Shown one piece after another: positions 10,597 to 36,906 of a stretch of 64,000 nucleotides of DNA. The stretch is from Amphiscolops sp. MND2022 (lineage: Eukaryota). The DNA lies in assembly GCA_964187785.1 (NCBI GenBank), contig OZ076409.1, positions 69,256,001 to 69,320,000 on the forward strand, in the 5' to 3' direction. The position numbers and the translations under genes were made by a program. Position 1 is the first letter of the stretch; each line of letters opens with the position of its first letter. The notes below the pieces were generated by a model. It saw only the letters and a program-made list of their open reading frames with translations, did no database searches and was not told the origin of the DNA.

Positions 10597-11654
10597 AACA
10601 AGCTGGGAACGTCTAAAGGCGGCGCTATATCTATAGCTCGAAAAGTGCGAAGTTTTTGAAATTTGCGTAGAACGTTTTCATAAAAAACTGTTTTCGATCC
10701 TCCGCCTCCTCCTTCGTAAAACGTAATATAGTTCGGATATAACGTTTGAAATTCGGATATACGGATATAACACTTTATTCCGGATATTGGGCCAAAAATT
10801 CGGGTAGTGTTGAAAAAATTTTGTGGGTATATATTGAGAACCTAATTTCAGACGACAAATAGTCATTTTCGAAAATCTCACAATGCCAAAAATTGTAAAA
10901 GGGGGACCTATTGGGCTACTTGAAAACCCAGTTTGTTGCAAAATACCAAAAACATTGAAAAGTTTTCCCTTTGGAGGCATTTGAAAATTTTTGAAAAAAA
11001 AACGAAAACAGAATTTTGAACAGTCGCAGAGTGCCAAAAAATGTGAAAGAGGGGACCCTTCGGGATTTATTAACATCCATTCTGTTACAAAATATCAAAA
11101 AGATGAAAGTTACTATGTTTTCGAGGTTCTGGACGTCAGTTTTGTTTTGGACGAGGTTCTGACGTTTCCAGTTTGCTTGGACATGTATAGTTCAAATTGA
11201 ACAAAGGATCAAAAAAAGTGGATCTTTCAGTGCGAGGTCTGTGGTCTGGAGAAAAACAAGTCGGCAACGGCCCAAGTCGGCGCCATAATTAAGGCTCAAC
11301 AAATGATGTGGAATTTTGGTGAAAAATTGGAAAAAAATTTTTGGGAAAAAAGAAAACGTTCAATCCGAACTTTGAAAACGTTATACCAGAACTTTGAAAA
11401 CGTTGCATCCGAATTTTCACTTTGAAAACGTTTCATTCATTAAAACGTTATATCCGAACTGAAATTCGGGTTGACCTCTCGGGTAAAAGGTGAACAAATG
11501 AACAACATAAGTGGACCAATCAGAGTGAAGTGAAAAAATACCCACTGTAATAGTCGGGCTTTTTTCCTTCAGGGAAAAGTCGCCGACCAAAAAAGAAAAA
11601 AGGATCACTGTAAGAGTTGGGCATTTGTTGCTTCACGAAAAGCGCCGACTAAAA
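10597..11654 (-). mobile_element. HINE-like family A, tandem/nested copies
   Basis: aacaag...ggcgctatatcta start, repeated aaagggggaccc units, second aacaagtcggcaacggcccaagtcggcgcc near 11255, end gcgccgactaaaa. Confidence 0.55.
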
Positions 11655-11769
11655 AATTCCAAATTTTTCAGCAACAAAGTGTTTGATAAAATGGTTCAAT
11701 AAAAAATTTTTTTCTGACTTCAAACGTCAATCGTTTTGTAATCGTTTAATTTGTATGCAGGCTTCCACA

Positions 11770-12394
11770 TTTTTAGTCGGCGCGTTTTCCTTTTGAAGAA
11801 AAATGCCCGACTATAGCAGTGCCCTTTCAACATTTTTCGGCACTTTGCAACATTTTTCGAAAGAAAAAAATTTTTCAAAAATTTCAAGTTTTTTTCCAAA
11901 AATGTTTAGTTCTTTTTGAGCCTTAGATATAGCGCCGACGTATTCATAGTGTTTTTTTTCTTCAGACCACAAACCTCACACTGATCGGTTCACTTTTTGG
12001 AAACATTCCTGGAACCACCTAAGGCCAAGTCCGGCCAAGGCAAACTTAGTCCAAAGGGTCCCCCTTTCATTTTTACTTTTTCAAGGAAACCTACAAAACC
12101 GGACGTGCCTAAAGGGTCCCCCAATTCGATTTTTTTCGGCACTGTGCGACTTTTTTTCGGAACTTTTTTAATGTCTCCAAATTTTTTCAATGTCTCCCCC
12201 CTTCGAACTTTTTGATATTTTGCAACAGAATGTATGTTAATAAATCAAAAAGGGTCCACCTTTTATGTTTTTTGGCACTAAGCAACATTTTTAGAAAGAA
12301 AACAATTCAAAAATTTCAAGTTTTTTTCCAAGAAAATGTTTTGCGCTTTTTGAGCTTTAGATATAGCGCCGACTTCAGACGTTCGCGTCTTGTT
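11770..12394 (+). mobile_element. HINE-like family A copy/copies
   Basis: ttttagtcggcgcg...cccgact start; gatatagcgccgacttcagacgttcgcgtcttgtt end. Confidence 0.6.
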
Positions 12395-14098
12395 TGCTAC
12401 TAACTTGAAAACTAACTGGTCAGGGAAAACTTTTTGTCTATATTTTTTGAGTAAAAATAATGAGTTGAAAAAAAACATTTGAAAATCCTTTGGTTTCAAA
12501 AATTTTATTCAACATTACGAGTGAACCGATAGCGGGCAAAAGATTCAATGAAAAAATCGACGCCACTCAAAAATGAACGCCACTTTTTTAAAAACAAAGA
12601 ATGAGAGTTAAAAAATATTAACGAAATTTTAGAAATTTTACATTCTACTGAACCATTTTTCGAAAAAAATGCACAACCAGAATTCACCCACCTTCCGTTT
12701 TGTAAATACTTCACGAAAAAATTTCAACACAGCTAACGTTTTCGATATATCCTCAAGCGGAGGCAATTGCTCTTTGAATGCTCTTAACTTTTGCTCTATG
12801 AATGTGATCAGTTTTTTTCACATCACTTCTTGATCGATTTTTAGGAAACGTTTCTTGAAGATAACACGATTCAAATTCCAATATTCAACGCGCAGTCAAT
12901 CCTTGGTCGTTTACAACAATACAGTGACTTGAAGTTGACTCCTAAACTGGATAGTGTAGTTTTTTTTTCCATTTTTCGCCCATTATCCGTACCTGTTACT
13001 TACTTTTCCAAGTCTTTTCCAAAAGTTGCCATGTTTCAAAACTATTCCCAAATTATAGAGGTTCTTCCACAGAATACAACTAACATAAAATGAGGTTCGT
13101 CGCATACGTATTTCTGCAGATATTTGAGGTTTTTGGATATGACCAAAACAATCCCAAAAAGATACCAAAAGGATCCCAAGAACGTCATAAATCCCAAAGT
13201 TTTCAAAGTTTGATCTTTTGAAGTAACTTGTAGTTATTGAAGTCCTCGAGGGGTAAGAACATCCACTATTTCAACAACGAACAATCAAACTATTTTGTAG
13301 AAGAAATTTGAAATTTCTATGCAGAATACGCACACGAAATGGCAACACAAAAGATAACTTTGGTCAATTTCAAAGGTGTTGAGCTATATATGTACTTTTT
13401 TTTCGACCAGTTGCGTGCCTTTGAAAAATCAATGCTTTTGAGAAACAACTATACTTTTTCGGAAAAAAACAACGTTATTTTTTGATGAAATCGAATGTCA
13501 GCAGTATCAAAAACTGCCAAGAACGTGTCATCTTTGGACCGTTTATTTGGACCGCTTTTATAACACCCTTTGCATGTTTTTGGATATCACTATCCAGTGA
13601 GTTCAAAAACAATCAGCAGAACTCAGAAAAGCAAAATTTGGCAATTCGGCATACTTTTCATGGGATATTAACTTTTCATCGGTAATATATGGGAAATAAG
13701 CAAAAAAATTCGAAGGTGCTTTGCAGTTTTTATGCAATTGTTGTTGTTTCAGTGGGTATCAAGATCCATTTGAATGGAACACTCATTAAATTAACTGAAC
13801 GAATGAACTTCGTCTACTTAGTTTTCGTGTGAATTAAAACGGAGTTTTTTTCGGGAAGATTGTGTAGAAAACAATGAAATTTTTTGGGGATCCCTGGTTG
13901 GAACTGCTTGAACTTTCTACATGTTTTTGTAGGCAATCTCGACTAGGAAGAATAGTGTAGCCGTTAAATCAATAGGTTGGACTTAAGAAAAAAGAAATGA
14001 ACGACAACGAGTAATCAGACCTTCGTGATTTTGCGAAAAACGCTTCGAAATCACAGCTTCAAGAACATTTGGCTGGATTTTTGGTCATTGTAACTTGC

Positions 14099-15596
14099 TG
14101 TCACAGCCTAGAGCTTGTGTTGGACCCGTGGAGCAGCAATAGAGGCAAATGACTCGACCATCTATTATTTCAAACTGGAGAAAACTTATCACTTCTTGAG
14201 ACTTGTTTTACATGTATTCATATATGACTTTTGTACACCAGCATTATTCAAATTTGTTTGTCATTACAGTTAACTGTGCTCGTAAATTAATACTCATTCA
14301 TAAACAATTCGCTAAATGTTTCAAGGTGTTAACATATTTGATGTATAATATCGCTCAACATGATTTGTAGTGAAATGAATAAATTATGCATGATTTGTAT
14401 GATGCTTTAGTACGTAAGGACTTTATTTGAGTTAATCTGCCACATTGAGTTTGCAGCATATAGAAGTACAATATTGCCTTTTTCAACTCAATAATATCTT
14501 TTAGAAGTATGACTCATTACGTTGAATTAATTATACGTGCTACATTATGCTGAGATTAACACCTGCTTTACATATGAGTCATACTACGTGTTGCCACATT
14601 TTTCTCATAAACGATGAACGGAGTAATGCAGTTTGCGTGTTAACCAATCACAGGGAATTATTCGTCATGTAAGATACTATTAATAGATAATTGTGTCATG
14701 TAAGAATCTATTTATATAACTTTGGAAAATAACGGAGTGCTATTTTTAGCCATTACATAAAAATGATGTAATGATGATTTCCTAAAAGTTGGCTGTCATG
14801 CTGCTAAATATAGCCCAAATTAAAAAGGAGACTAAGGAACCCGATAATATTCATTCAACAGAAAACTTCCAGACTGATCAGACCTTTTTTTCATCTTCAT
14901 AACAATTGTTTCGACTTCGATAATTTAATGTTATGCGCATTTTCTTCAATCTCATTCCAACTCAATTTTACTTTGCTTCTCAAACCTAATTAAAATTCTT
15001 CTCTCCAACATTGCATTTTAATCTGGCCAAAATGGGAAACAAGAGAAATAGGAGATCTAGACGAGGACAATCACCCTCACTTGAGAGAGAGTTGAGCGCA
15101 TCAGAAATAGAGACATCACAAGGTAATGAAACAGTTATTGAAACTTTAAGTAACTTTGAAAATGTTGGTTCAGTTAGGGACGAAGAAATAGCTCTAGACA
15201 GCGGAACACAAAATGAAAACGAAATGCAAATTTGGACCCAAAGACTAACAGATAAAACGAACAAAGAAGTAACAAACTTAAGAAAAGAAATGGATGAAAA
15301 GTTAGAGAAAATACTGAAAGAAATGAAAAATAACAGAAGAACACAGTCCGTACCAAACAGGAGATATCGAGAACAAAACACCCCCAGAGCAGGAACTTCG
15401 AAATACATAAGTAATGAGGACGGTGAAGAAAACGCATCTGGACCAGAAAATCAAGAATGTGAGATACAGGATAATCCTTTCAGGCCATCTAATTTAAACG
15501 AACTTAGAACACCAATGCAACCTTTGGGCATACAAAACATTGATTTAAATGACTCTGTGGTCATGAATGAGGACCGTACACGAGAGGATTATCACA
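14099..15596 (+). repeat. Left LTR of element 1
   Basis: TGTCACAG...TATCACA; nearly identical to 24980-26477 (roughly 1-2% substitutions by eye); CTTGC lies on both sides. Confidence 0.92.
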
Positions 15597-15619
15597 CTTG
15601 CTATAAGGGGATAATTTAA
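15032..15619 (+). CDS. LTR-encoded ORF, probable Gag N-terminal region (basic start, coiled coil); terminates in flank
   Basis: MGNKRNRRSRR...NLRKEMDEKLEKILKEMK...EDYH is open up to the LTR end; the equivalent ORF in element 2 continues into gag. Confidence 0.6.
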   Translation: MGNKRNRRSRRGQSPSLERELSASEIETSQGNETVIETLSNFENVGSVRDEEIALDSGTQNENEMQIWTQRLTDKTNKEVTNLRKEMDEKLEKILKEMKNNRRTQSVPNRRYREQNTPRAGTSKYISNEDGEENASGPENQECEIQDNPFRPSNLNELRTPMQPLGIQNIDLNDSVVMNEDRTREDYHTCYKGII

Positions 15620-16123
15620 TGAAAATGAGACGTCTTTGTAAATCAGAAGTTCTCGGTCGGCTGCATTTGGGGAAGGAATTTTTTACCTATTATCTCGATT
15701 TTTGATGATTTTATGCAATTGATTTGAACGTTGTGGATGTTTTTATGGGTATAAGCATCCAAAACGCTCGAACATTTGTACACTTAGCTATTTATTAGAC
15801 ACTTTTATAAAACCTATAATAGTTCTTCCCAATTCATTCTCAATTTTTCTACTATTCAGTAGTTTGTTAGTACCTTGTTTTAAACTTTAAAAAAAATTTT
15901 TTGGCTAATCTCAAAACCACGAACGCACCGACGACAAAACATTTAGAAATTTCCTATTCTTCATGAAAAAGTTTTTCAAACAGTGTCGCAATTAGAATCA
16001 TTGAAAGCTCCAAGAAAACATGATATCCAGCATGCTTTTTTGAAGATAAAGTTGAAAACACTGATCAAAATTTGATCTCCAGAAAAAAGTTGCTAACCTG
16101 AAACAAGCAGCTATCCTTATCAC
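15597..16123 (+). repeat. Duplicate of the host flank that follows the right LTR (26478-27004)
   Basis: Direct sequence match from cttgctataagggg to ctatcct(t/g)atcac with a few substitutions. Confidence 0.9.
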
Positions 16124-18296
16124 ATGTAGCAGGAGCAATGAATACAGCTGCAGACTTCCTGTCGCGAACGGAAATTATTCCTACAGAAAAACTAGAAATG
16201 AATTTACGTAACGACATACAAACAAAAGCTATCGAGGTTAATATCCAATCCTCTGGCATAGCCGAAGAAGAACAAATTTACGTCCACCCGGACGATGAAA
16301 ATGATGAAAAAACACTCTGGGAACAGAAAGACAACATCCGAAATCAAGCACAAACAGAAACACACAATGAACCGGAAAACGAAATAACTGAATTACAAAA
16401 TTTCCATAAACCAACTGCCGGAACAGTAGATTATCGGGAAGGACATTTCCGAGACAATGCAAAAATCCGACTCGAATAAAATAATGACCCAGTCCTTCGC
16501 AATCTCAGAGCCAAAATAGAGGGTGAACCTTTTGATCAATCAGCGTTCACACAAGACAATCGTTACCAACACTACCTACAAAACATACCCCGCATCGAAA
16601 TCCGACAAGACATTCTTGTACGAAAATACTACAATGATATTGGACAAATCTCACACTACCAAATACTCTTACCAAAACAGCTTCTTGAAGAGTTCCTACA
16701 AGCATTGCATGGACACAATGCAAATCACCCAGGAATAACAAAAATGATACAGGAAGCACGACAAAAATACTATTACCCATGCTTGGCAAAACACATCAAA
16801 AATGGGTACAAAACTGCCAAATGTGCATTCAAAACAAAAAAATCAACAATGATTTACTGAAAACAGAACTCTTAAACTGTCCAGAATGGGATCTCGGCCC
16901 AGAAGATATTCTTCAGATGGACATTCTACCTAATCTCCCACCAAGTGGAGGATTTGATAACATCATAACAGCAATTGATGTCTTCTCAAGATATTTATTT
17001 GCTTATCCAACAACCCGAATCACAGCCCCTACAGTCGCAAGTGTCATTATGGACATTCTGTGCAAACACACATATTTACCAACGACCATAATAACTGACA
17101 TGGGCACTCAATTCAACTCACAAAGCACCCGAGAAGTAGCAGCAGTGCTTGGAGTTGAACTAAAACATGCTTCGACAAAACATGCACAAACAATCGGCAT
17201 GCTAGAACGCACTCATGCTACAGTAAAAACACATTTGAAAGCAGCTACAGGTGAATTCCGCAATAATTGGCACAATATCCTACCACTGGCTGTCTTAAAC
17301 CACAACACAACGTATCATACTAGCTTAGGATGCGAACCCACCCGTGTTTTCCACGGCAAGATACCACATAACATCTTAGACTACAAGCTGGGCTATAATC
17401 CTAACCCATGTTATACTCCACAGTCTGACATTGCAGAAGAAATACAACGCAGAATGCAGATACTCAATGATCAAACCAAAAAGAACATCATGCAGTCATA
17501 CTTAAAATATAAAGCATACTATGACCGCAAGGCGAAAGCAGCACCGCTTACTACAACAGACTATTGCTATATACTGAACCCAAAGGCAGACACACAAGCA
17601 ACAAAACTTTCGTTTCGAGAATTCCGTTGGATAGGGCCCTACAAAGTTGAAAAGGTCCTACCTAACAATAATTACATCGTACGAAGGCTAGGGACAAACA
17701 AAACACAACTGTTACACCGAATACGTTTGAGGAAATTTACACCTAGCGCACCACTAGCCGATAATGTTGTCAGAGAAACTGATTGGCAAAAAGACGACAA
17801 CATGATAGTAACACACGATGATCTGTATGCCCATACATGGGACACAAACTTTGGTACAGATCCATTTGAAACAGAACTCCCAGATAACGAACAAGAGGAC
17901 ATACAAGAATATGTACCGATTAACCGCCCACCCTCCCTCGAAATTTCAAAAAACAGTGGGGGAGCCTCGGTAGAACAAACTACCGTTCCTAATATAGAAA
18001 CCCCAATCGAAAACACAGAAAACGAAACTGATACAAATGATAATCAGCATAACATACTACCTAACCCTACTATTGATGCAGAAAAGTCCCCAGAAATTGC
18101 AGGTGGAAATCAAGAAATAACACTACCAGAAGATAATGTTGAGGTTCAAAAAGGAAAATCACCCACAAATACATGTGGACAAAAATACAATTTACGACCG
18201 AATCCAAACCTTAATTTTTCAGATTATATTAAAAACAAGAGACTATCAAGACTGAACTCACTGCTTCTTAACTTGAATCACTACCGTAACAAGTAA
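16121..18296 (+). pseudogene. pol: pol remnant: RNase H C-terminus plus integrase (HHCC, DDE, GPY module)
   Basis: HVAGAMNTAADFLSR; HGHNANHPG...C..C; LQMDIL / ITDMG / MLERTH; WIGPYKV. In-frame stop at 16477-16479 and a frameshift near 16790. Confidence 0.92.
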
Positions 18297-18362
18297 ATAG
18301 AACGTAATACAAATGAAAGAGTATTTTGTTCCAAAATAAAGAACAGTATAAAGCACAGCAAA

Positions 18363-21300
18363 CTAATCGTGCTTGTTTGGAGTAAAAACCCCTTTCTTCT
18401 TCTCCTTCTTCTCTCCGGATTTGGGTGGATCTACATCGGGAAACATGGGCACCTCAAACAAGCGTCGTACCACTGGACTAGCTTTGCTAGTTGAGGGTTT
18501 CTCCGGAGAAGTTTTACTGGGGGTACTAGTTGCACTAGAACTTCTGCTGGGAACTGAATCAGCAGTTGACAACCAAATAGTCTCATCATCCACGCTACTC
18601 TTCTTATAATAGGCTTCCAAGGAAGCTCGAATCCCAATCTTGTGGAAATAGTTCGATGACAGTAAATTCCACATGGAGAACTTACGCTTATGCATCAACC
18701 CAGGCCCTTGGTCAAGAAGAGCGAAGGCTCGGGGTGAGGAAGCAGAGGCCAAAAATAAGCTTTCAATCTTCTTGATTGATGCAATCGAACACTGGAGACT
18801 TCTCACTGCAGAATTAAATTCTGAAACGTCTGACTTGAGTCCGTCCAAAGAAACAGTGAATAAAGGGGGAGCCTGAGAAGGACTTCTCAAAGTTTCGCAC
18901 AAATCCGGAAAAGCCGAAATAACTCTGCCCGACTTTGTAACTCGTAGTACCGAGAGAAGAAGCTCACCCATTCTTTACTGCCATTGTCGACTTTGTCCGG
19001 TCGAAATTTCGTCACCAGGGAACAGTACTCGCTCACGATGACGGGCTTAACGCTTGGTGCGATCCATTTTTGTTGGACGAAGTAACCACATAGCAATTGT
19101 ATGGAATCGGTGTAGTGAGCTGAATTGCCAACTTTAACCACGACTTCGTCAAATGAAGACAACCCCCTGACGAATGAAGAGGTTGCTAATTCGCTGGTAA
19201 GAAGTTTCTTTAAAAAGCGCTTGTAAAAGGAAACAACTTGGCTGACAAACCGTCTTGGGGTAGGGATCCTACTCTTCTGCATTAGATCAGAAAAATCCTT
19301 GTCCAGCAAGAATTCATCAACTGTCTTGAACACTAGCTTTTCATCATCCATGTCCAAACTGAGGTAACTGTCCCAATCAGCGACATCACCAAGTTGAGTA
19401 GCAGGAAGGATAACTTGAAGTTGAGAGTAAATAAAGACACAGAATTGGTTGAATAAACGGAAACCCCCAGCAACAGTGGTGTGAACTTCCTTGAAGATTG
19501 AATTGTCTGGAACAATGATAAACTTTGTGATCTCAAATTATGGTTACAAAGATTTTCTTGGTCGATCCTTACAAAAGGGTTCTCCTAATGAGCGATCTTA
19601 AAGTTTGGAAAATAACAGTAACCCCTACTAAAACAAGGGGGACAACTCAAAAGTATGAAATCAAAATCAAATACTAACATTGGCTAAGTATGTTGCGGGT
19701 GATGAATAACCGCGCGACGAAGACTCGGTCCTTGACAATGAGATCATCCATTCCGGTGGGCTAAAAGGAAGAAGGAAGAGATTATATACTTAAAATCGAA
19801 CACAAGAAGAAGAAAAACCCAATCCAACAAAGCAAGTAGAGTTTCAAGAAGACGGAATTAAAGTACACAAACCTCGTGCATATGGAAGCGGTAGGTGGAG
19901 ATACGTCTACTGTTATAAAGATGTGCCACCACATTGTCCCAATTTGCGATCAACTGATCCAAAATCTCAACGGCTTGTGTCAAGTCATAGTCGAAATTAG
20001 TCACCATCTGAAAAATAACAATCACTATGAAATAGAAATCACGTGCTAAAATACTAAACATAAAGACAAAATGACGAATTCGTTCACCAGCAAGTTCAAC
20101 ATCACAATTTTGATGTGGCATGATTCATTCAACAACTAATATTGTGACGCAATGATGAATCATACATAATTGTGAAGAAAAGAACTAATTGAAAGAGTCG
20201 ATTATGCCGTACTATGCTGCAAACTATGAGATGCATAATGGGTATCTTTGAACATTTGAGCACGAAAAATGGAAAGTTGAAACAAGTTATGCGGCAGCCT
20301 ACTGCAAGAAATGAAGTACAATGACTTGGGAGCAAAGAACCGAAGAGGTAAGCATCGAAAAACTTGATTCAGAATCGCAACGCTGTTTATAAAGTTTGGA
20401 ACTCACAAATTAGTCCAACAGGCTATTTTTGCCGAATGATAAAGCCGAATAAATTAAGGGAGTAACTTATCGTATGGATTTATCATCTCTTAATTATGAC
20501 AAAATAAAGAAAGGAAACAAAACATTACCCTTTGAAAATCTGGGAGAACAGACAACCATGAACTTCCACATGCCGATCGAAGCCGCATTAGGAGGAAGTC
20601 GAGTACGCTGCGGAAGTCAAACCGGTCAAGGAGTTGCACCGACGGCACTAGAAGAACACTCTCAAGATCATCGGCATCGAATCTAGGAGTTGCACAAATT
20701 CTTCTCCGCTGCGGTAAGACTCGAGAAATTGCCCTTACGAAACGTCGAGTGAACCCAGACATAAACAGGATTTGCACGTCTTTGTCTAACAGCGCCAATA
20801 AACTGCTCACAGGATTGATGAGTGCGGTAGAATTGGTCATTCGCCCAGGGAACACAGCAATACACAAACTGTGAAGAGAATTTCCAGCCCAAAAGTTTAT
20901 GAAAAGTCTGGTTTCGTTAGAAAGAACTGCAAGACGAAGAGAGAAACTGCCCGAAGCTTCTATTGAAGTCACACAGTATGACAGCAATTCGCGAAACATG
21001 TGAGTTAGCAATCCCTAAATACAAAAGAAAAGAGTTGAATATTGAAGAAAAGTTCGGAACATAGATACAATGGGAAATTTACTTACCAATACTCGATGTG
21101 GTCTCCAATCGTACTGTGAAATTGGCTCGATGGATTTTGGTTTCACGAACGAGATCATGCCAAAGTGCTATAACGGTGTCCAAATGTCCTCCATGAACCA
21201 AGCCAAATTTGAGGAGATTGAGTTGCGATAAGACTTCCTTGCTCGGGGGGCTCGCTGAAGCTCCTTCCGGTTGTTCTAACTGGCCAACCCGTAAATAATA

Positions 21301-22813
21301 ACCACCAAGTCTGGGAGCCACAGAAAATTCTCTTTTCGCCCGATCCTTAGCATACTTGAGGGCCATGCCAGTGAGCTCGTTACAATGTTTATCGTACAAG
21401 GGGAGCCCAGGAGTCTCCATCCTGATACGGTGCTCCTTCACCAAATGAGCATCAGTCCGATAATGCCCCAGGATTTCGAGAGGTCCTTATGTCATCAAGG
21501 AGAGTTCGACCAAGCATACCCGGCACCGATATTTCTGGGGGTATCGCGCTGCGTCAGTGGGAGCGGTTACGAAGTACTTTAATATGGGGTATTTGTGATA
21601 CATCCACCCCGCTAATATGTGTCGTGGCTTCGCCCTTATCCCAGGCGGGGCTCCCTCATCTCGTCGGGTGTGCCTTGGTTTTTTGATAGGCTTTTCCTTG
21701 GGCACTTCCAATTCTTCAGCAGAAGAAAGATCTGAGCTGCCTGATGAATCCGATGAAGTGTCGTCACTCTCTTCTATTTGCCGGACTAGAGGCTTTTTGG
21801 GGGATGGTACCTCCTCTTTTGTCTCCAGTTCGCCTTGATGGCTGGCCATGGCTGGTGGAGAGTTGCCTGTCACTGTCTCGTGATACTGTTCTAGTATCTT
21901 ATCTCTGGCTTCCTCAGCTGCTTCTGCGAGTAGCCGTTCTAATCTTTGGTCTCCAGTGTCTTAGGGGCTAGAATGGAGTGCAACAGACGAATTGGTAACT
22001 GACATTTTTGCCCCCGTTTTTGGACTCTGCTGTTTCTTACTAGGGGGAGTCGAGCTAAGTAAAAACCTCGTAAAAGGAGAATCTTTAGAGGTACTTGGAA
22101 TCAATAATGAAGGGTTGTCGTCATTCGCAAAAGATGATGAGGAACAAGGTCGTTTGTTTCCAATTGGAGCATTACAAGGTTTTGAAGCTGATTCGCACTG
22201 TTTTGGAGGATTATCTGAACGACTTTCGGCCGTTGCTAACCTCTCAACGGGCTTAGTAGTTTCAACGTACTGACTGAAATCTCCGTCCAACAAAATTTGT
22301 GGAGAAAACTCCGGAGGAATATCGTCTTCATCAATCGAAAATCTTGGATTAGCTCTGACACTCAGAGTAACACTGGGCTTTGCAGCTAAGCGTCCTGATT
22401 TCACAGAAGTAAAGGGGAGTCTACTTTGTGATTGAGCTGGGGAAGAATCTGAAACAAAATTTGAAACATTGTGCTATATTCTGCAACCGGAAGTCAGTAT
22501 TTCCGCACAAAATTTGAAAAGGTGCTACATTCTGCAACCGGAAGTAAATGTTTTCGCACGAAATTTGAAAAAAGGAAAGTTGACAAATCTGAAGATAGTC
22601 GACAAAAGATATGAGTCTGGCCAGCTCATATTAAACTTCGAGATATCTCAAAAAGCAATCACTTAACCTGATCTGATCAGGAAAATACTGCAATTCAAGC
22701 TTACCACTTTTAGATGTAGATTTCTTCTTCTTCTGTTTGTTGGATGTCCCTGCTAGTGGCGATTTTGCTCCCTGATCCTTTTCGCTCGCTGATGATTGCC
22801 GAGTGCAAACCAT
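18363..22813 (-). pseudogene. Spliced antisense accessory gene of element 1 (Ser-rich N-terminus, CxxC..H..H zinc finger, hAT-transposase-like body)
   Basis: Exons 22813-22705, 22448-21087, 21014-20529, 20007-19873, 19760-19679, about 19604-19490 and about 19412-18363, mostly with GT..AG ends. In-frame stops at 21961 and 21487 and frameshifts are present; homologous to 28939-31657. Confidence 0.7.
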
Positions 22814-23084
22814 CGTTTTGTAAGAGAAGAGAAACAATAATCCAGTACAAAGAATTTGTGATGTGAATTTTAAAATTGGTGCAACGAATTCGAGCGAAAT
22901 CCAAATGGAAAATTACAAACTAATCTATAAAAAATTGCAAAATGAACACGGACAGATGAAAGTTGGAAGCAAAAGGAAACTTTAGACTTTAAAGACGGAA
23001 ATTTGACAAACAAAACTGCGGCGTGGCTTCCGGCTGAACAAATTCTAAGCATGACAAATTAGCATATTTGCGCAAATACTGTGC

Positions 23085-23196
23085 GCTGATTGGATGAGCT
23101 TATTACGGACCAATCAAATCTGCCAGAAAGATTGATGTCCTGAACGGCATTGCTGAAACAAATTACGCATACATGACGCCCCGCCCTCTAGTGGCA
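23085..23196. promoter_or_regulatory. Candidate internal promoter/insulator: two opposed CCAAT boxes, GC box, CTCF-like motif
   Basis: ATTGG 23089-23093, CCAAT 23110-23114, CCCCGCCC and CCGCCCTCTAGTGGCA 23181-23196, located between two divergent ORFs. Confidence 0.4.
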
Positions 23197-23872
23197 ATTT
23201 GATGTCATGTGTGAAAACAGACAGCAAAATGCAGTACAATACAAACTGAATGACCTAAAACAGAAAAATCCTACAATCATGTTTCATTCTCCTCATTTAC
23301 CTAACTAGCATGCATTACGTATCTGACATATTTATGCTGAAATGAACGTCATGAAGCAGTGTGTACATGATTTAAGGGAGTGAATTAAACTATTTTAATT
23401 ATGAAACTTGTCATGTATTTTAATTGAAAGTCATGTAATTTGGTTTAATTTCATTTTTGTTGATGATATTACTCAAAACGCATGCTATATTCCCATAAAA
23501 GGAAAATTTGTAAATTCTAAAAAATAGAACCGAGTTCTTAAAATTCATCATGCAGAATCTCACCTATATTTGTTTACAGTCAATTGTTATGCCTTTGTCA
23601 TCTCGAATGGGAAATTAACACCCTTATCCACCATATATGGAAGTTGTAAAGAGGACTTCATTTTGTTGTGGAGCTATTTAACTAAAATTGAGGTATAATC
23701 TAACGGTTACCCTAAAATTGCCGGGAAAAGGTTAACAAGAGAGGAAGATGACTCCACAAACTACCTACCTTATTCGGAAAACCCGGGAGAATAGTCAAAT
23801 TGTGAAGAAAAACGAAAAAGATTCATTCAATCAAAACTTTCTGAGAAAAACAGTTGAAACTTCAAAATCCAA

Positions 23873-25023
23873 ATGGAAAGCAAAATGCCAAGAACCTCAA
23901 ATCTCTTCACCATCGACGAGGATATGCAATCCATCTCTACAAATTCCCCTGGATTAATTAATATATCCAGTGATTCTGGGGAAGAATTTGTAACCGAGCA
24001 GTCCTACGTCGACCCAATTGACTTGAGATTCAGAGCCGGAGGGCCACTGCAAGACCCGATGTTGGCTTTTGTCAACGAAGATGCGGCTAGACTGTTCGCG
24101 GTTAGCGAGACAGTGTCGAGAGAAGATTCTTTCATCGATGTTATCGAAACTGACATCGAAAGAGAAATATTGAGCACAATAACCGAAAACACTGAACTAC
24201 CAGATTTTTCGCTTTCATCATTCGTCGAGTCAGACGAGAGCAATGATGATAATTTGCTGTTAAACGCGGACTTCGCAAACGCACCAAGAATTAGTTATGG
24301 TAGGCCCGTAGTCGCTGTTCCCCCGATGCGCGTTGGGGAAGTAATAGCACAGATGCCTCCGCTATCACAAAGTAATGTCAACAACTCCCTAAACAATCTC
24401 CATAGAAATGGTCCAATAAGACCAGTGCCAATAACTCCGATGGTGGTACCCCAAGAAATTCTGATCGTCAATCAACCTCATCAAAATAATCGTACTAGGG
24501 GAATTCTGCAAACGCCCTTAAGGGACAAAAACTTTAACCAAAATACTCAGCAACACATGTCTACCTTGACTGGCCGTGGAGCAATCCCTTTCCAACATGC
24601 TGGAATAACTAACATACAACATCTTGGTAACCTAGATAATTCTGGATATTATTACAACTCCGCCGGGCAACTATATTTAGACCCTCAAGGTGTACACAAT
24701 AACCCCGGGGTAGCTGAGACTTATCCTACCCAAGCATACAACAGTATGCAGGAACAGCCAATCCACAGAAGGATGCAGCTTAACCCGCCTGTAATGCCGC
24801 ACGTTCAGGGGAACTGTCACTGGTGTGGAAAACCTATGACGAAGTAGCCCTTGACGCCTTAGCAGCTTATACGATCGCCACCGAATACCCATGTGAAACA
24901 GTAAGAGACCGGAACATCAGGTCGCGAGCCTATCTAGATGGGTTCGAGGCTGCACTCATTTGCTTCAAAAATGCTGGCCTGTCACAGCCTAGAGCTTGTG
25001 TTGGACCCGTGGAGCAGCAATAG
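23873..25023 (+). pseudogene. Sense accessory ORF of element 1, unknown function, ends inside the right LTR
   Basis: 324-aa ORF (acidic, then Pro/Asn/Gln-rich, CHWC). It continues in another frame after an apparent 1-nt loss in ggaaaacc (about 24830) as YDEVALDAL...GLSQPRACVGPVEQQ*. Confidence 0.6.
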
Positions 25024-26477
25024 AGGCAAGTGACTCGACCATCTATTATTTCAAACTGGAGAAAACTTATCACTTCTTGAGACTTGTTTTACATGTATTC
25101 ATAAATGACTTTTGTACACCAGCATTATTCAAATTTGTTTGTCATTACAGTTAACTGTGCTCGTAAATTAATACTGATTCATAAACAATTCGCTAAATGT
25201 TACAAGCTGTTAACATATTTGATGTATAATATCGCTCAACATGATTTGTAGTGAAATGAATAAATTATGCATGATTTGTATGATGCTTTAGTACGTAAGG
25301 ACTTTATTTGAGTTAATCTGCCACATTGAATTTGCAGCATATAGAAGTACAATATTGCCTTTTTCAACTCAATTATATCTTTTAGAAGTATGACTCATTA
25401 CGTTGAATTAATTATACGTGCTACATTATGCTGAGATTAACACCTGCATTACATTTGAGTCATACTACGTGTTGCCACATTTTTCTCATAAACGATGAAC
25501 GGAGTAATGCAGTTTGCGTGTTAACCAATCACAGGGAATTATTCGTCATGTAAGATACTATTAATAGATAATTGTGTCATGTAAGAATCTATATATATAA
25601 TTTTGGAAAATAACGGAGTGCTATTTTTAGCCATTACATAAAAATGATGTGATGATGATTTCCTAAAAATTGGCTGTCATGCTGCTAAATATAGCCCAAA
25701 TTAAAAAGGAGACTAAGTAACCCGATAATATTCATTCAACAGAAAACTTCCAGACTGATCAGACCTTTTTTTCATCTTCATAACATTTGTTTCGACTTCC
25801 ATAATTTAATGTTATGCGCATTTTCTTCAATCTCATTCCAACTCAATTTTACTTTGCTTCTCAAACCTAATTAAAATTCTTCTCTCCAACATTGCATTTT
25901 AATCTGGCCAAAATGGGAAACAAGAGAAATAGGAGATCTAGACGAGGACAATCACCCTCACTTGAGAGAGAGTTGAGCGCATCAGAAATAGAGACATCAC
26001 AAGGTAATGAAACAGTTATTGAAACTTTAAGTAACTTTGAAAATGTTGGTTCAGTTAGGGACGAAGAAATAGCTCTAGACAGCGGAACACAAAATGAAAA
26101 CGAAATGCAAATTTGGACCCAAAGAATAACAGATAAAACGAACAAAGAAGTAACAAACTTAAGAAAAGAAATGGATGAAAAGTTAGAGAAAATACTGAAA
26201 GAAATGAAAAATAACAGAAGAACACAGTCCGTACCAAACAGGAGATATCGAGAACAAAACACCCCCAGAGCAGGCACTTCGAAATACATAAGTAATGAGG
26301 ACGGTGAAGAAAACGCATCTGGACCAGAAAATCAAGAATGTGAGATACAGGATAATCCTTTCAGGCCATCTAATTTAAACGAACTTAGAACACCAATGCA
26401 ACCTTTGGGCATACAAAACATTGATTTAAATGACTCTGTGGTCATGAATGAGGACCGTACACGAGAGGATTATCACA
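24980..26477 (+). repeat. Right (3') LTR of element 1
   Basis: Matches 14099-15596; followed by TSD CTTGC. Confidence 0.92.
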
Positions 26478-26500
26478 CTTGCTATAAGGGGATAATTTAA
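25913..26500 (+). CDS. Second copy of the LTR-encoded Gag-like N-terminal ORF
   Basis: Same protein as 15032-15619 with one L/I difference. Confidence 0.55.
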   Translation: MGNKRNRRSRRGQSPSLERELSASEIETSQGNETVIETLSNFENVGSVRDEEIALDSGTQNENEMQIWTQRITDKTNKEVTNLRKEMDEKLEKILKEMKNNRRTQSVPNRRYREQNTPRAGTSKYISNEDGEENASGPENQECEIQDNPFRPSNLNELRTPMQPLGIQNIDLNDSVVMNEDRTREDYHTCYKGII

Positions 26501-28006
26501 TGAAAATGAGACGTCTTTGTAAATCAGAAGTTCTCGGTCGGCTGCATTTGGGGAAGGAATTTTTTTACCTATTATCTCGATTCTTGATGATTTTATGCAA
26601 TTGATTTGAACGTTGTGGATGTTTTTATGGGTATAAGCATCCAAAACGCTCGAACATTTGTACACTTAGCTATTTATTAGACACTTTTATAAAACCTATA
26701 ATAGTTCTTCCCAATTCATTCTCAATTTTTCTACTATTCAGTAGTTTGTTAGTACCTTGTTTTAAACTTTAAAAATTTTTTTTAGTTAATCTCAAAACCA
26801 CGAACGCACCGACGACAAAACATTTAGAAATTTCCTATTCTTCATGAAAAAGTTTTTCAAACAGTGTCGCAATTAGAATCTTTGAAAGCTCCAAGAAAAC
26901 ATGATATCCAGCATGCTTTTTTGAAGATAAAGTTGAAAACACTGATCAAAATTTGACCTCCAGAAAAAAGTTTCTAACCTAAAACAAGCAGCTATCCTGA
27001 TCACTTATTTGGAAACACAATCTGAAAAGTATGCTGCCAAAATGACACGAAAATAGTCGCAATTTTCAAATTTTCAATTTTTTGCAATATTTCCAGAGTT
27101 TTAATTTTTTTTGAGAGTTAGAATATCTAAAAAGATCCAAAATGAATAATCGGCTTTTCGAGAGGCTTTTCCGAAGCGAATACTAATTAGTTTTTTGAAA
27201 AAGAGCCTCAAATTAACCACAAAAGTTCTGACGTTTTGAGACATTTCCTTTTTTGAAATTTGAAAGCCAATTTCTTCAGTTTGTCTGGTTTTGTACTGTT
27301 TCCGGACGTTTTGGACGTTTTCAAAGACAAGGTCGACAAAAACCTTGAAAGAAATTGAATGAATTTAGTGCCCTTCACGCTTTTAGCAAAAATTCTGATT
27401 TTTTTAAAGTACCCTCAAATGTTTATACCCTCAAAGACAAACTTTTAAACTATCTGCAAAAATGAAAATCTAACATAATCTTTTTATTGACAACTTCCGG
27501 CAATGTATGTAATCTTTTCAAACGTTGCAAGAGATTTCAATGCCTAATTTTCAATGCCTAAAATTTCAGAAACGGAGCAAAAAGACGTCTGGTACAATTT
27601 TAGGACAAGCTGAAAAAGCCTCAAAAAGGCATCGAAAAGATCTTTTGAAAATATTAAACAATATGTCGCATTTCGTTCAGTTTTCGAACAATTTCAAGGT
27701 TTAGAATATCAAGAGACTTTTTTGGTTGACACGAACTACCATACTTGCTTTTACAAAACGGAATTCGATTGTTTGTTCAGAAAGTACAATGATATCTAAC
27801 AAAAATTGAAAACGTGTATTTTTATAAAAACTTCTGGATAGTTCACTGCGTAAAACTACAAACAGTGTTTACAAATGAGCTGAGTATTTATGTAATACTC
27901 TTTACGACAAAAATCTTTTTCAAGAAGACCCCAATATTGCAAAAAAATCTAGAAAATATCAACTTTGCACTTTACAAACTCCAGCAAATTGAACAACAAA
28001 GGACCA

Positions 28007-28938
28007 TGTCGCGATTTTGTTCGCCTGTGTAAGAATCCACTGAACTCTCACTAGACATTCGTCTATAATTCTCCTGTGTAAAACACGTTTTGGGGCGGTT
28101 TTCCCGCGCTTGATGAGTATTTTCAACTTCGGGGTTCCGTTGTAGCCCACCGGCCCTTCGGACCACCATGGTGTAATTGCCTCTCCCCTGAAAATCTAGT
28201 GTATTTCGGATAGAAGGAAGTACTTTGTCAGCTATTGCTGTGGTAATTGCGTCTTGTATCTGAGAATTATTGCTAGATTTGATGTCATTGAGTTTCCTGG
28301 AAATTTGATTAGCAATTTCATCCTCAATCGTTCTAGTGTTCTTTATGGTCATCTCACTAATCTCTCTACTAATAGTATTTAGTAGTGATCTGTAAACCTC
28401 TCCTGTTAAATTAGAGTTGTTTTGTGGCCTACTGGACCCTGAATCTAAATTCAATTCATTTTTACTGTGATCATTTGTCTCATCATCCCTCGAATAACTG
28501 ACTAACAGTATATCGACGTTTTCCACATCAGACAACATGTCCAATTGATAAGAACGTCTTTCTTTAGCTCGTTGCTTTCTGGTAGACGGCATATGGAAAC
28601 TTGAAGTTTTCAACAGTCATTTAACAGAATAACGTGGGGTAACAAAGAGAGAAAGTATTGAGCAAGTATATCTCAGGTCAGTATCGCAAATTGTATGTTT
28701 CAATATTCATTTTAATTGTGTCCCTTCGGACACCAAGTAACTTATATTTATACTTAATTTTGCATGACTAGCTGAAACTGGGGTGTAATGTTACTATAAA
28801 TAGGTATTGCTTTCTCCCGAAATAGCTTTGACGAGTGACATCATGGTTACGTCATTAAGCTGCTCTGAAAAAAAGCATCAAAGGAACTCTGGGGGTAAGG
28901 CGGACTAGCCGTTATGTCCCAAATGAATTAGAATATGA
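28007..28938 (-). repeat. 3' LTR of element 2, inner ~690 bp deleted; contains Gag-like ORF 28592-27972
   Basis: Aligns with 35222-36220 with many substitutions and one ~69-bp indel. Confidence 0.85.
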
Positions 28939-31657
28939 ACGACGTGTCCCTACGACATGCTCGAGACTCTGATTCAGAGAGCCAGCCAACTGTCACTAGA
29001 TCCTCAACCCCCCCTAGTGGCAAAACTCCGAAGAAAAGCACCGGAAGGGGAAGTTCTCCCAGAAGTTTGTCCGGGGCACGGTATCGAGACTCAAGCTCTG
29101 GAGGCTACAGTGATACTGGTGGCGCGATTAGGAGCGATGATGATTCCGAAAGCATCAGATATTCTTCTGAGTATTCGAAGCATGATGCAATTACAGCTCC
29201 TTCACAAAAATCATCCCTTCCCGCTTGTAGCCAACAGGACCCTGGGTCTCCGAATGGTACTTTCAACGTGGACAGCCCTGGAGCCCAGACCCTTGCGTCT
29301 TTGAAACAGGAAGCTATGCAAGCCAAACGACAGCGTTCCAGGAACCAACAGGGACGGTTTACCACTTCCTCCGGTAAGGTCCCTAATACCACGAGAGAGT
29401 GTCGCGAACGTGCAAGATTATGATGGAGGAATACTTGAAAGGATTGGAATGGACCCACACCTTCGTCTGTGGCCCTGTGGATCCTAAGTGGAATCGTTAC
29501 AAATTCTACTGTCAAATTTGCAAAGCCAACATCTCTATTTATGCCAAGGGGGCTCGAGAAATCCTGAGGCACCATTCCTCCGAGAAGCACCTCCGCCAAG
29601 ACAAACGTTGGAGGTACGAGTATCGTTACAGAATAGACCCGGTCACGAACGTTCGCATTCCGAAGGTCAGAGGCCTGGACGGTAAGCTGTTCAGTTCCTT
29701 TCAAGCTCTACAGTTGCCAAAATTCAAGGATGCAGAAGTGGTGGACATCAGCGAAAAACTCCCATTTTATGATGAACTCATGTCTGGTGCAGACCATAGG
29801 TCATCTTCCTCTGAGAATCGTGCTCGAGTCCAACGATCAGTGCTAGGACGATTCCTTCTTCACTATGGGGACATTGACGTGCTGAGAAACTTACAAAGAC
29901 AATGCAGTCCAGAGCCTTCCTCAGTTTGAGAAATTACAACTTCAAGCACTGATGCACAAGAAGAGCTCAAGCGTGTTTGGGCGGATTGAATTCTTCTCTG
30001 TTCTCCGCTTCCCAGTGGTTTCCCTTGGAGCAGGCTTAGAGCTGGACTGGGTGTTGCTTTCCCCTGAACTGTCCAAGGTGATTGTGGCCTCTTATATAAT
30101 ATGGTGGCCTCATCTTAGGGACGTTTAGTAAGATTCCCTTGTTATTTTAGGCGATCAGGACGTGTCAGCTTGAACTGGTCAGTCTACTTTCCCTATGCCA
30201 AGAGCTTCTCAAAAACTGGACAAGAGTGACTGGTTACCTTCTCCAAAATTCCGCTACACAGGAGATCCAGGGCGTTCATAAGCTGGTACTAATTCTAGTT
30301 TGCTTATATGAATTTCACTTATCATCTAGTCTTTACGCCTCCTGGTCACCCTTAGTAATTTCCCATTTATGGGGTTTTGAAGACGGAACTCCACGTCTTT
30401 TCTTCTAGTCACTCAGGCTTCAGGTCATTCATGGTTGTGTTTCCGTTTCAGCCACAGAGCTTAGAGTGGTTTATGGTCTACGATGAGCTCTTCCCTACAC
30501 GGTTGGAGCTATTCTACCGCCTAGTCCACAATTACACCACGAGTTTTACACAGAACCTGAAGCAGCGTCGAGATCGTGGTTTCCATGTGTTCAGGGAATT
30601 GTGCGAATACCTGTTCAAACTGGGAAGGCGACGCATTCGGCCAGTCAACCTACCGGCTGAGAGCGACCATCAGGCAATTTTATCCCTTTCCATCCCCGAC
30701 GTCAAGACTCTGAGGTATCCGACTGTCTATCACGTTCGAAACTAGATACCAAACGCAACATAACATGTAAATCAAAAGCAGAAGCTGAGAATGGTAAAAA
30801 AAATGAAAGGATTGACTCTAGGAGAAATAACAGCAAAAAATTAGGAGAAGTTTGACCGCACAGCACGTACTTACGTGATTTTCTTGTTTAAAGGAGCTCA
30901 AGGACTCAATCGCTTTAGCTCGGACATCGTCAAAGGACTCGGGTCATTTGACCTTGATGTCATGCTTGTTGACCCCCTGGAGCGAGCTGACTATTGCTTT
31001 AGGCAGCTATTCACTAGCTTCCGACTCAGGGTATTGTTCCATGCTGATAAGGAATCGATCTACACTGAGGAGTACCTTTCCTTTTTGGATGCCATTCGAC
31101 ATGTTGGAATCCAGCAAACCAAACTGCTCATCACCGATGCGATAGATTTCATTTCTGGCCGAGAATCCTTAGGGTCTCGAACACATCTGCAGAGGATCTT
31201 TCGTCTTAGCTGCTTGTGTTTAGACGAGCATCGGTTATCCTTCTCTCCTGTCAAGTTTGGTTCGCACCATACTGATGTTCCCCAAAGTCCAATGTTCGAT
31301 GTTATCGCTCCCATCCAGTCTTACTTTATGTTTTTTGTGGATTGGACGTTTCCACTTCAGATTCTGCCCTTTCTTGTTAAAGTGTTGCTGGAGCAGTCAT
31401 TTGGAAATGCCGGTCTTAGTGACGACTATAGTCCCTGGGACAGCATTGATCACTTTGGCAGGGGACAGATCCGAGAAATTTTTGCTCTCATTGAGCCTAG
31501 AGGTGAGACCACTAGTAGGACCAGCAGGACTGAGAAGAGCATTGCCCAGAAGACCTTTCCAGTTCCAAAACCTAAAAAGCAACGCAGCTATTTACTGCCG
31601 GAGGAGGAGTTGACTGACTCAGCTCCGCGCCTAGTAGCCAGTTGCAGTAAAAATTAA
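28939..31657 (+). pseudogene. Spliced antisense accessory gene of element 2, homolog of 18363-22813
   Basis: Ser-rich segment; KFYCQICKANISIYAKGAREILRHHSSEKH finger; exon 30151-30285 (ELLKNWTRVTGYL); acceptor before 30452; SSDIVKGLGSFD...EEYLSFL...SRTHLQRIFRLSC. Confidence 0.68.
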
Positions 31658-31828
31658 TTAGACCATATGAACAATTGTATTTTAGTTTCTTCTTTTGTAC
31701 CATACGAACTCGTGTTTCTCGTGTTTAACTCTACGATTTGTTTTGAAATTCACTAGTTATTTGGTATTACAGTTAGTCTGTTCCCTCAGGAAATATTGTC
31801 AGAAAGGGGAAGATAATCTACTTGTTTG

Positions 31829-33560
31829 TTTAGAATCTGTATTCATCAGTGAAGTTGATGGTTGGGTTAGGTCGAAGGTTAAAATTTCCTCCCCTAGGGC
31901 TTTCGTTCTCTACAATCATATCATCGTTTTCATCGTCTGATATTTCGGGTACGATAGCATCGCTGCCTCCTGACGATTGTTGATCATCAATCCAGTCATT
32001 CTTGCGTTGTGAGCGTGTATTTGCAGTCAGATAAAAATTTTCATTTTCATGTGACCTGAAGTTGTTGATGAGTTGTTCGGCATCATTAGCAGCTATACCG
32101 ATGTCATCAACGTTTGGCGCACGTTGATCTGATTTTATGACCTTGTCTGATTACTCGCGTATGAAGCTAGAAAAGGCTGAAAGAACACGACTAAGGCTTT
32201 GTGCGATAGGCGAACGTTCTGCTAGCGAAGTTGAATGCAAGCATTTCAAAGGACCGTTGGTCGACCATTTGCAAACAGTGGTAGGCTTGTGAACAGTCCA
32301 ATTTGCAAAAGAGTTTTTTGCCTGCCATGTGTTGGCCAGCGTCAGTCAAGGTACTGACAGGATGATTGTTGTTGATGTAGTCATCGGAGATCAAGTTATT
32401 GTTTTCCGCAAGTCGACTAAGATTCGCAAATTACTATTTGGTTTCTTTTGGGCAAATACTGGCTTGCATATTTGGTGAACGGGAGTATTGTTATTATCCC
32501 ATATCTATAGAGAAATGCCAATTCCACGAGGATGCCCCCTTTGAGGTTAATCGACGTCGGTAGGCTTTGACTTGGGAATTGACCTTTGGAGTTACTTTCA
32601 CTTTGAACTCTTCGTTCATGCCAATGTCGAAGGGGTGTCTGGCAAAGATATCATGAAATTCAACCAATAGGTCTTCTATGCGAGTGATTCGTCTTGTTGG
32701 AGGCCACTCGAAATTGGTCAAAAAGTGTCGTCGGGGCAGAGGGCCTCAGTTTTTGTAGATTTGATCAAGCTACTTGCATAGTGAGCAGCGTTCTGAGGAT
32801 GATCTAGGTTTGAAATATTTCATCTGTTCCGGAGTTAGGACAGTGAAATGTGCAACTTGTGTACCCCTTTTGAGAGTATAGAGGCTGTCAGTGAAGTTGT
32901 TCAGATGAACCGATTTTTGACCATTGGTCAGGGTGATTAGAGCAGCACAAAAGGCAACATCGCCATCATCGGTGAGTGTGTTGCTCGGCTGAAGTATGCC
33001 AGTAACTGTAGTGTCTTCATACAGCTGTGAGGCCTAAGGACTAGATGTCGATCATTAGGTGGGATGGTGACATCCTCCCTAATGCAGATGGGTTCCATGA
33101 CATTGGTGTTCTTGTGGTCCGCCGTTTTCAGCTGCATTGAGAAAAAGGGGAATATTAGGACACCTTGTCTCATGTCCAGAATGGTATTATTTAGTTGGAG
33201 GAATGAACGGCCAATCAATGGATTAGTAAGTTTTTCCGTGACTATGAATATTTCGTGGAAATCTATGTCGCCGACTTCAACTTTCAACTCGACTGTGCTC
33301 TTCGGAGTTTTCAGCTGTCAGTTACCAACCATGATTTGGAAGTTGGGTGCTGGGTCTTCTTTTATTATAGACTGAGGGGCTAATAATAGGATTTTACGTA
33401 GATCAGCTTCTGAGATTGCGCTAGATAGTGCTCCCGTGTCTACAAGGCAATCGAAAGTTAGTTCGGCGAAATCCATTGGAACGTAGAGCAAGCGTTGCTT
33501 GTATTTGAGGCCAAGATTGGTTGTCAGCGGTACATAGTCTGGTTCCCCTGTTCTGGTGAC
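31829..33560 (-). pseudogene. pol: pol remnant: aspartic protease, RT N-terminal part, then integrase tail (RNase H and IN core deleted near 32045)
   Basis: LVDTGALSSAISE; LFCKLDCSQAYH...LAFNFASRTFAY...NVDDIGIA; tail NFNLRPNPTINFTDEYRF* resembles element 1 KYNLRPNPNLNFSD. Confidence 0.88.
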
Positions 33561-34199
33561 CAGGGTATTCACAAAACGTGGTGCAACGGCTGTAGCCAGA
33601 AGGACCTGTGGCCCTCCACGGTGAAACTCGTCGGCAGCTTCAGTGTGAGTCGATTGATGAGTGAGGTGTTGGCCATACTGCCATTGGTGAACTCGGGCCT
33701 TTGGAGGGACCATGTTCAGGGCTTAGTCGGTTTCATATGAATCCAGTTCAATGTCCTGAGCTGGTTGGTTATTATTGTTGTAAAAATATTGATGATGTTG
33801 ATTGTAGGAATTATCATCCCAGTAGTGGTCAAAACCATAGTCAGGGTCGGGATAATAGGGATTATAGTCATCAATTAGAGGTACGAGTCGTATACTGTAA
33901 GTATCGTTTTGTTGTCTGGTATACGTAGGGTCCGTAGTGTTTGAAAGAGTAGGCGGAGTCAGCATCTGCTGCTGCCAGTCCGCTGATGATGATTCTTTAT
34001 GTGTTGTAAAATATTCAGTGTAAAACACGTTTGAAGTGTCAGACATTACATATTGTCTGCCTCGAAGTTTTTCGTTGATTTGGAGTCGTGGCAAATCTAG
34101 TTTTTTGAGTTTTTCAGAAGAGAAGTTGTTTGTTTAATATTGGCGTCATTGTGATTTGTGGACGCCTCATCAGTTTCAAAATCTTCTAATTTGAGGATT

Positions 34200-35871: not shown

Positions 35872-36906
35872 ATGGAAACTTGAAGTTTTCAACAGTGATT
35901 TAACAGAATAACGTAGGGTAACAAAGAGAGAAAGTTTTGAGCAAGTATATCACGAATCAGTATTGCAAATTGTAGGTTTCAACATTCAATTAAATTGTGT
36001 CCATTGGGACTGCAAGTCACTGATATTTATACTTAATATTGCATGACTATCTAAAATTGTGGTGTCATGTTACTATAAATAGGTATTGCTTGTTCCCGGA
36101 ATAGCTTTGACGAGTGACATCATGGTAACGTCACTAAGCTGCTCTGAATAGAAATAGCATCAAAGGACATTTGGGGGTAAGGCGGACTAGCCTTTGTGTA
36201 CGAAATGAATTAAAATATGACATTGCATGACATCTAAATGCTGTGATGGACAATTTGTCAGTTAAAATACCTTTACGGTCTTAAAGTCCAAATGGCTGCA
36301 ACACAATATGTACAGATTCTCCATGGGTAAATAGCACCACGGCGGACCTTCGGTCCACATGGCTACAGCACAGAATACATAGTCATTGTAGTGAAATCAA
36401 ATAATACCACGGCGGTCTCACAGTCTGCGTGGCTACAGTAAATGTATATTAGTACTGCGTTGTGTTTAGCTGTTACTGCGTTGGAACGCGTGTACACCTA
36501 GCTACAGGAAACGATCATTTGAACTCGTTTCCTTCTTTGTGCTTACTTGTACGTTTTAATTTACACATTTAATCGCATTAAAATCCTGTAATTATACTAT
36601 CCTGTTTAATACTGTTTAATCTTAACAATCTACCACGTACAAACAGGTAATTCAAACACAGATGGGTAAATACATGAAATAGTATTCTCAAAGTAGTTTA
36701 CAAGCCGAAGAACTCGTGAATTAGATATAAAAGTTTGTTGTAGCTAAATCGACTAAGTGTCTTTTTTTGGTTGAAATGAGTTTTACTTTAGTAGTGAGTT
36801 GAACTGGTTGTAGACGGTTGTCCTCAGGGTCTATTACGGTTCATATGGGTAATACTCCAGGTGGTGGGTTAGGTGCGTTGTTTCCTGCCGGTTTTTGGCT
36901 GCGACA
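35222..36906 (-). repeat. 5' LTR of element 2 (1685 bp)
   Basis: Bounded by the TSD and the PBS; homologous to 28007-28938. Confidence 0.85.

Follow-up and report, generated by a model that had tools for sequence, protein, structure and literature searches.

Ty3/Gypsy retrotransposons in the genome of Amphiscolops sp. MND2022 carry, between pol and the 3′ LTR, an antisense gene with five introns whose product is predicted to resemble hAT transposases in fold and appears to have lost the catalytic residues. Sequence comparison indicates that this gene is an exchangeable cassette, swapped between elements on near-identical gag-pol backbones. These observations suggest that a class I element captured a class II enzyme as a regulator. 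The reading we favor, at a rough probability of 45%, is that the hAT-derived gene encodes a trans-activator or anti-silencing factor acting on elements of its own type, and that its rare versions are favored. One copy lies in the window (the whole 64,000-nucleotide stretch analyzed here; Table 1) and was the subject of an earlier note.

Table 1. Features of the antisense gene, its host element and a second copy in the window.
Feature	Position	Strand	Remarks
5′ LTR	14099..15596	+	1,498 bp, TG..CA; contains the start of gag (~190 codons)
Copy of the element's own 3′ flank	15597..16120		occupies the place of gag-PR-RT
End of pol: RNase H end and integrase (H2C2, rve, p58 C-terminal)	16118..18296	+	stops and frameshift
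Antisense gene, exon 6	18363..19506	-	all-helical part resembling an insertion domain, then C-terminal part and a basic, disordered tail; frame shifted near 18900
Antisense gene, exon 5	19679..19760	-	82 nt
Antisense gene, exon 4	19873..20007	-	135 nt; homologous exon present in distant groups
Antisense gene, exon 3	20529..21014	-	162 codons; RNase H-like core, no conserved catalytic Asp
Antisense gene, exon 2	21087..22448	-	long low-complexity region, basic stretch, C2H2 finger, then helical region; two stops and one frameshift
Antisense gene, exon 1	22705..22813	-	start codon, Lys-rich; 100% identical in two relatives
Intergenic region, antisense gene/ORF3	22814..23870		CCAAT boxes at 23087 and 23110
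ORF3, second accessory gene	23858..24847	+	no Pfam match; frameshift near end
3′ LTR	24980..26477	+	paired with 5′ LTR
Group 2 copy of antisense gene	28932..31657	+	decayed, partly deleted; inside minus-strand Gypsy element 28003-36220, on its antisense strand

The LTRs of the window element are identical at 1480 of 1498 bases (98.8%) and are flanked by a 5-bp target duplication (14094-14098 and 26478-26482). The antisense gene sits between the 3′ LTR and an integrase recognized by Pfam (PF17921, E 1.2e-9; PF00665, rve, E 6.3e-12). The element is internally rearranged and non-autonomous, without gag, protease, or RT: the direct repeat formed by its ends (14098-16123 and 24979-27004) goes ~520 bp beyond the LTR, and the flank copy is joined directly to the RNase H end of pol. 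A tandem duplication followed by LTR-LTR recombination would fit this repeated flank (15597-16120 and 26478-27004), as would an assembly merge. Because ~190 gag codons lie inside the LTR (15034-15596 and 25915-26477 in the window; also in L031-L069), the gag frame runs over both the end of the LTR and the primer site, and in relatives of the window element it continues out of the LTR. This part of gag has a dN/dS near 1 (median 0.97; integrase 0.09). A sense-strand AATAAA occurs between the points where the converging frames of pol and the antisense gene stop, at 18334 in the window and also in L003, L007, L023, and L026, and could mark the end of a gag-pol mRNA before the overlap; no antisense-strand AATAAA was found in the scanned stretch of eight loci. 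Elsewhere the window contains a 1.9-kb element with inverted ends of ~510 bp (48811-50702), a degenerate tandem array with a unit of ~180 bp (59973-61373), and a repeat family dispersed in direct and inverted orientation (10597-12395 and 38657-39444). It also contains presumed host ORFs with what we take to be Axin-like motifs (5160-8539), for which neither Pfam nor PDB gave confirmation.

The gene is found in many families, in antisense between pol and the 3′ LTR, as expected if a retrotransposon lineage keeps it. An exon search of the 1.07-Gb genome returned 4,804 candidates, among which all 150 scored matches had E ≤ 1.5e-55; first-look candidates numbered 4,804-8,054 in different searches. 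Loci were collected through the antisense gene itself, and all counts describe gene-bearing elements. Twenty elements were examined with both flanks (hand-picked minus-strand matches of high to low identity, most of them with long open frames). Every one has a flanking direct repeat, an integrase, the antisense gene, and a sense ORF3, and 19 have gag. Target duplications could be read at both LTR ends in 14, of which 12 are exact 5-bp duplications, one has a single mismatch, and one shows none. Full pol frames, such as that of L055, have the order protease, RT, RNase H, integrase by Pfam, which identifies the elements as Ty3/Gypsy. An integrase lies on the opposite strand within 1.5 kb of the antisense gene in 59 of 62 loci. 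Among loci found through the gene, the features of an antisense accessory ORF of the aORF-3R kind are present (location between pol and the 3′ LTR, antisense orientation, purifying selection).

Copies of the antisense gene in this genome form at least three groups, with about 20% identity between groups. On its minus strand the window also holds another, older Gypsy element with LTR-like repeats 86-88% alike; profiles of the gene match its group 2 copy at the finger (29411-29911), part of exon 3 (29886-30077), and exon 6 (30527-31495). A group 2 pol (L104:5167-9000) has a weak dUTPase-like match between protease and RT (E 0.005, below cut-off). In public proteins, 829 cluster representatives match a profile of the gene, and the ten looked up are all unnamed; one public protein is only 29% identical to its best match in this genome, so the family reaches beyond this assembly.

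The motifs quoted in the earlier note all occur on the minus strand at 18363-22813, and the ORF pieces that it joined through introns resolve into six exons with matching phases. The introns, all GT..AG, are 256, 72, 521, 112, and 172 nt in gene order, and the joined exons amount to about 1,105 codons. In the window copy this frame is interrupted by stops near 21961 and 21487 and is shifted near 21140 and 18900. In 23 of the 32 group 1 and 2 loci, exon 3 measures exactly 486 nt from AG to GT; the other nine have indels or one mutated splice site there. In group 3 (20 loci), the exon 3 acceptor is one codon earlier and the donor is absent, the frame continuing into exon 4 homology without an intron. 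The L023/L076 and L106-L110 types are without intron 5, their frame crossing the junction predicted for the window into exon 6, and a public protein (P0097) has exon 4-5-6 homology in a single frame. Where copies differ, they do so mostly at the third positions of antisense codons (for example 968 vs 449 and 176; ten pairs). Judged by exon conservation and by intron loss between types, the introns are real. Intron 1 contains two 50-bp repeats (22471-22571), each with one CCGGAAGT motif, a candidate regulatory or binding site that we take to resemble an ETS site; one or two such motifs occur in nine of 20 elements scanned. In L101/L103:1498-3951, an in-frame internal deletion joins the disordered arm to exon 6 in an 818-aa frame in which the finger and core are absent.

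The N-terminal part of the product is of low complexity, rich in Ser, Pro, and acidic residues, and is followed by a finger of the form C-x2-C-x16-H-x5-H that is invariant in 20/20 rows. This finger region matches Pfam zf-C2H2_ZN292 below cut-off in eight of 20 rows; zf-BED gave no match there in the Pfam scan and is among the ESM neighbors (0.83). The exon 3 model (pLDDT 54) shows three strands, a helix, a strand, and a helix, an RNase H-like arrangement. It aligns to residues 153-266 of Hermes, which is the top structure by Foldseek and tied for the top by VIA, while the exon 5/6 model aligns to Hermes 348-573. The hAT-like reading of the earlier note thus finds support in the predicted fold, with Hermes top or tied-top for both modeled parts. 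As far as the models go, the parts of the product would follow the order known from hAT transposases (Hermes, PDB 2BW3, 4D1Q, 8EDG), namely a finger, a helical region and the RNase H core, then a putative helical insertion and a C-terminal part.

Pfam profile scans and hhalign gave no significant sequence similarity to hAT, and the hAT link is supported by middling structural scores and language-model features. The hAT dimerization region PF05699 matches no exon 5/6 member, and its single match (E 0.15-0.17) falls in the wrong place, in exon 3. Ordinary hAT transposase frames of the Ac and DUF659 types, with intact catalytic motifs, are also common in this genome (L117-L141, L162-L182); none is detectably related to the cassette. 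The cassette could instead be a real accessory gene of other origin, derived from a Mutator, P, or Kolobok DDE family or from a host gene domesticated earlier from a transposase. We consider this rather improbable: Hermes is the only structure matching both modeled parts, and in colinear order, the exon 5/6 match covers 167 residues vs at most 119 for any other listed chain, and the ESM neighbors are hAT-related clusters.

Catalytic columns of exon 3 were placed by motif reading in 46 gap-free rows, in which neither CxxH, which we take to be a hAT motif, nor RW occurs (0/46 each). Key residues of Hermes include D180, D248, R318, W319, and E572 (PMC6027215). The first catalytic Asp site is never Asp in the 46 rows and is Glu in nine; the second is Asp in one and Glu in eight. 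The two Asp that the earlier note reported as lacking are not conserved across rows, whereas a Trp at about the W319 position is kept in 45 of 46. No invariant Glu was found in the exon 5/6 alignment, and the third catalytic residue, which the earlier note had not counted among the losses, looks lost as well. Unlike Hermes, the product lacks conserved catalytic Asp, CxxH, and the Arg of RW, has a long disordered N-terminal arm, is borne by a retrotransposon, and in the window copy shows no terminal inverted repeats. As far as its residues indicate, it is not an active transposase and not a member of hAT as enzyme or element; in manner of working, the models suggest a scaffold derived from a transposase that binds DNA. 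That the cassette is a nested DNA transposon, or a passenger hitch-hiking in the retroelement, as reverse orientation and transposase fold at first suggest, is extremely unlikely, given that no inverted repeat longer than 9 bp joins the edge zones of the window cassette, the 5-bp target duplication belongs to the whole element, position and orientation are constant across the three deeply diverged groups, and purifying selection is strong without catalytic residues.

Within one backbone group, 49 pairs between subfamilies have a median dS of 0.26 in integrase and 0.25 in ORF3, and the antisense exons are 65-74% identical, with dN of 0.18-0.28 and dS saturated in 42/49, 32/32, and 40/40 pairs. 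The antisense gene is under strong purifying selection despite its lost catalytic residues. L033 and L037 share an integrase (dS 0.01) and differ in cassette; L031 and L033 share a cassette (dS 0.06-0.08) and differ in integrase (dS 0.56). The 92 loci examined include 70 with both integrase tail and cassette, among which 15 cassette types occur on three backbone groups, no type on more than one group, and in 53 pairs the cassettes differ while the integrase tails are 97% identical or more. At the DNA level, identity to the window stops at ~18240-18270, the end of pol, and returns at ~22997-23503, upstream of the start codon. These breakpoints indicate that the whole transcription unit is exchanged and that its versions are far older than their flanks.

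ORF3 lies head-to-head with the antisense gene, upstream of it, and is ~90% identical where the cassette drops to 60-70%; its median dN/dS is 0.19. Its C-terminal CxxC and helix domain is conserved across groups (window 23858-24990; L032, L044, L056, L058, L064, L103), and its frame passes the polypurine-tract position into the 3′ LTR. The intergenic region probably serves both genes as promoter and forms the right boundary of the exchanged unit; CCAAT[CG]A is present in the scanned 2.4-kb stretch of 20/20 elements, as a raw count with no shuffle control.

We propose that an ancestor of this Gypsy lineage very probably acquired a hAT-type transposase gene in reverse orientation; the simplest route, which we hold to be similarly probable, would be a DNA transposon that inserted between pol and the 3′ LTR and then lost its ends and catalytic residues. 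Introns opposite the genomic RNA strand of a retrotransposon escape splicing before reverse transcription, so the antisense position would have allowed the introns to be inherited. The gene would be transcribed from its own promoter in the region common to it and ORF3, giving a nuclear protein of 1,100-1,400 residues in which a long disordered arm is joined to an intact zinc finger that presumably binds DNA and to a non-cutting transposase scaffold. The likeliest of its conceivable jobs would be to bind a sequence of its own element type and keep that element transcribed despite host silencing. If rare versions are favored, which would be the cause of the swapping, many old versions would persist and recombine onto near-identical gag-pol backbones. 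More tentatively, the gene may be a hypervariable, exchangeable specificity cassette, in which the dead hAT scaffold recognizes and unlocks (or protects) its own type under frequency-dependent selection against host silencing. Antisense and genomic transcripts would both span the cassette, so that divergence of its sequence would curb cross-silencing, and such RNA-level pressure may add to any functional reading.

Other functions are compatible with the same origin. Truncated transposases repress some DNA transposons, the P-element repressor forms being an example, and such repressors usually consist of a dead transposase that keeps its DNA-binding part intact. The anatomy of the product would thus fit a copy-number or timing repressor that damps transcription or integration of its own element, yet a pure repressor would give little cause to keep and swap 15 deeply diverged cassette types, and families with the cassette are very abundant (see the first-look counts above), making this unlikely. 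Of comparably low probability is a targeting or tethering factor that steers integrase complexes toward certain chromatin or DNA sites: the zinc finger and basic tails are conserved and two full pol frames have no chromodomain, but target duplications are without an obvious common motif and cassettes swap freely on one unchanged integrase type, though a common interface could permit that. It is very unlikely that cassette and ORF3 act together as a module for self-recognition or addiction, whether as a poison with its antidote or by shutting out related elements, with the cassette diversity representing specificity types. Such deep, swappable diversity may be typical of specificity modules and the two genes lie head-to-head in 20/20 elements; however, ORF3 stays steady while the cassette changes, and the lack of co-variation as a matched pair weakens this reading, as does the absence of any toxin-like domain in cassette or ORF3 by Pfam.

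The earlier note did not know this arrangement from animal Gypsy elements. In plants and fungi, Gypsy elements with antisense genes at this place have been described before; the animal Gypsy-like modules reported in the sources available are of other kinds. Antisense ORFs between pol and the 3′ LTR are found in the plant Ty3/Gypsy elements Grande (gene23, maize), RIRE2 (rice), and Retand (TRP28/PF04195); in the available text of the sources, their origin and function are stated to be unknown, no similarity to other transposons is reported, and nested transposons are not supported as the source of antisense accessory genes (PMC7264820; PMC11963269). The gene described here resembles them in position, orientation, and presence in most copies, and the Grande product, with its own promoter and nuclear location, and the suggested DNA-binding regulatory role of the plant ORFs parallel our proposal. 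Unlike them, it has a predicted DDE-transposase fold, five introns, and cassette swapping; the Retand paper makes no mention of introns. The antisense extra gene brtn of Boty-like Gypsy elements in Botrytis and Sclerotinia (cited in PMC7264820 and PMC8365987) shares the same place in a non-plant lineage, but it is fungal and, in what those papers cite, has no described transposase link. The plant mobile domain, common to Gypsy, MULE, and the host silencing genes MAIL1/MAIN and with a proposed anti-silencing use (PMC5418596), is a precedent for a module exchanged across element classes; unlike the cassette, it has no transposase fold as described there, and Pfam scans gave no sequence kinship between the two. 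Bdelloid ORF3 types and planarian Burro are likewise animal LTR elements with captured, family-specific modules, including esterase, exonuclease, env-like, RING, SMC, and MATH (PMC5408684, PMC6431247), though the part of PMC5408684 available mentions neither transposase nor intron for the bdelloid elements. A literature search, mostly outside subscription journals, found no report of a transposase captured by an LTR element.

If the more tentative reading, that of a specificity cassette, is correct, this would be a transposon-to-transposon domestication across classes and the first Gypsy antisense accessory gene with a traceable origin, its source being readable from the fold in this lineage. 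A class I element would have kept a disarmed class II enzyme over a very long span, as three groups at about 20% identity, with more in public assemblies, suggest. Because old cassettes are swapped on young backbones, function is testable by comparison inside one genome: elements alike in all but their cassette can be set side by side for insertion sites, expression, and small-RNA load. The cassette may also help account for the abundance of these elements in a ~1-Gb genome.
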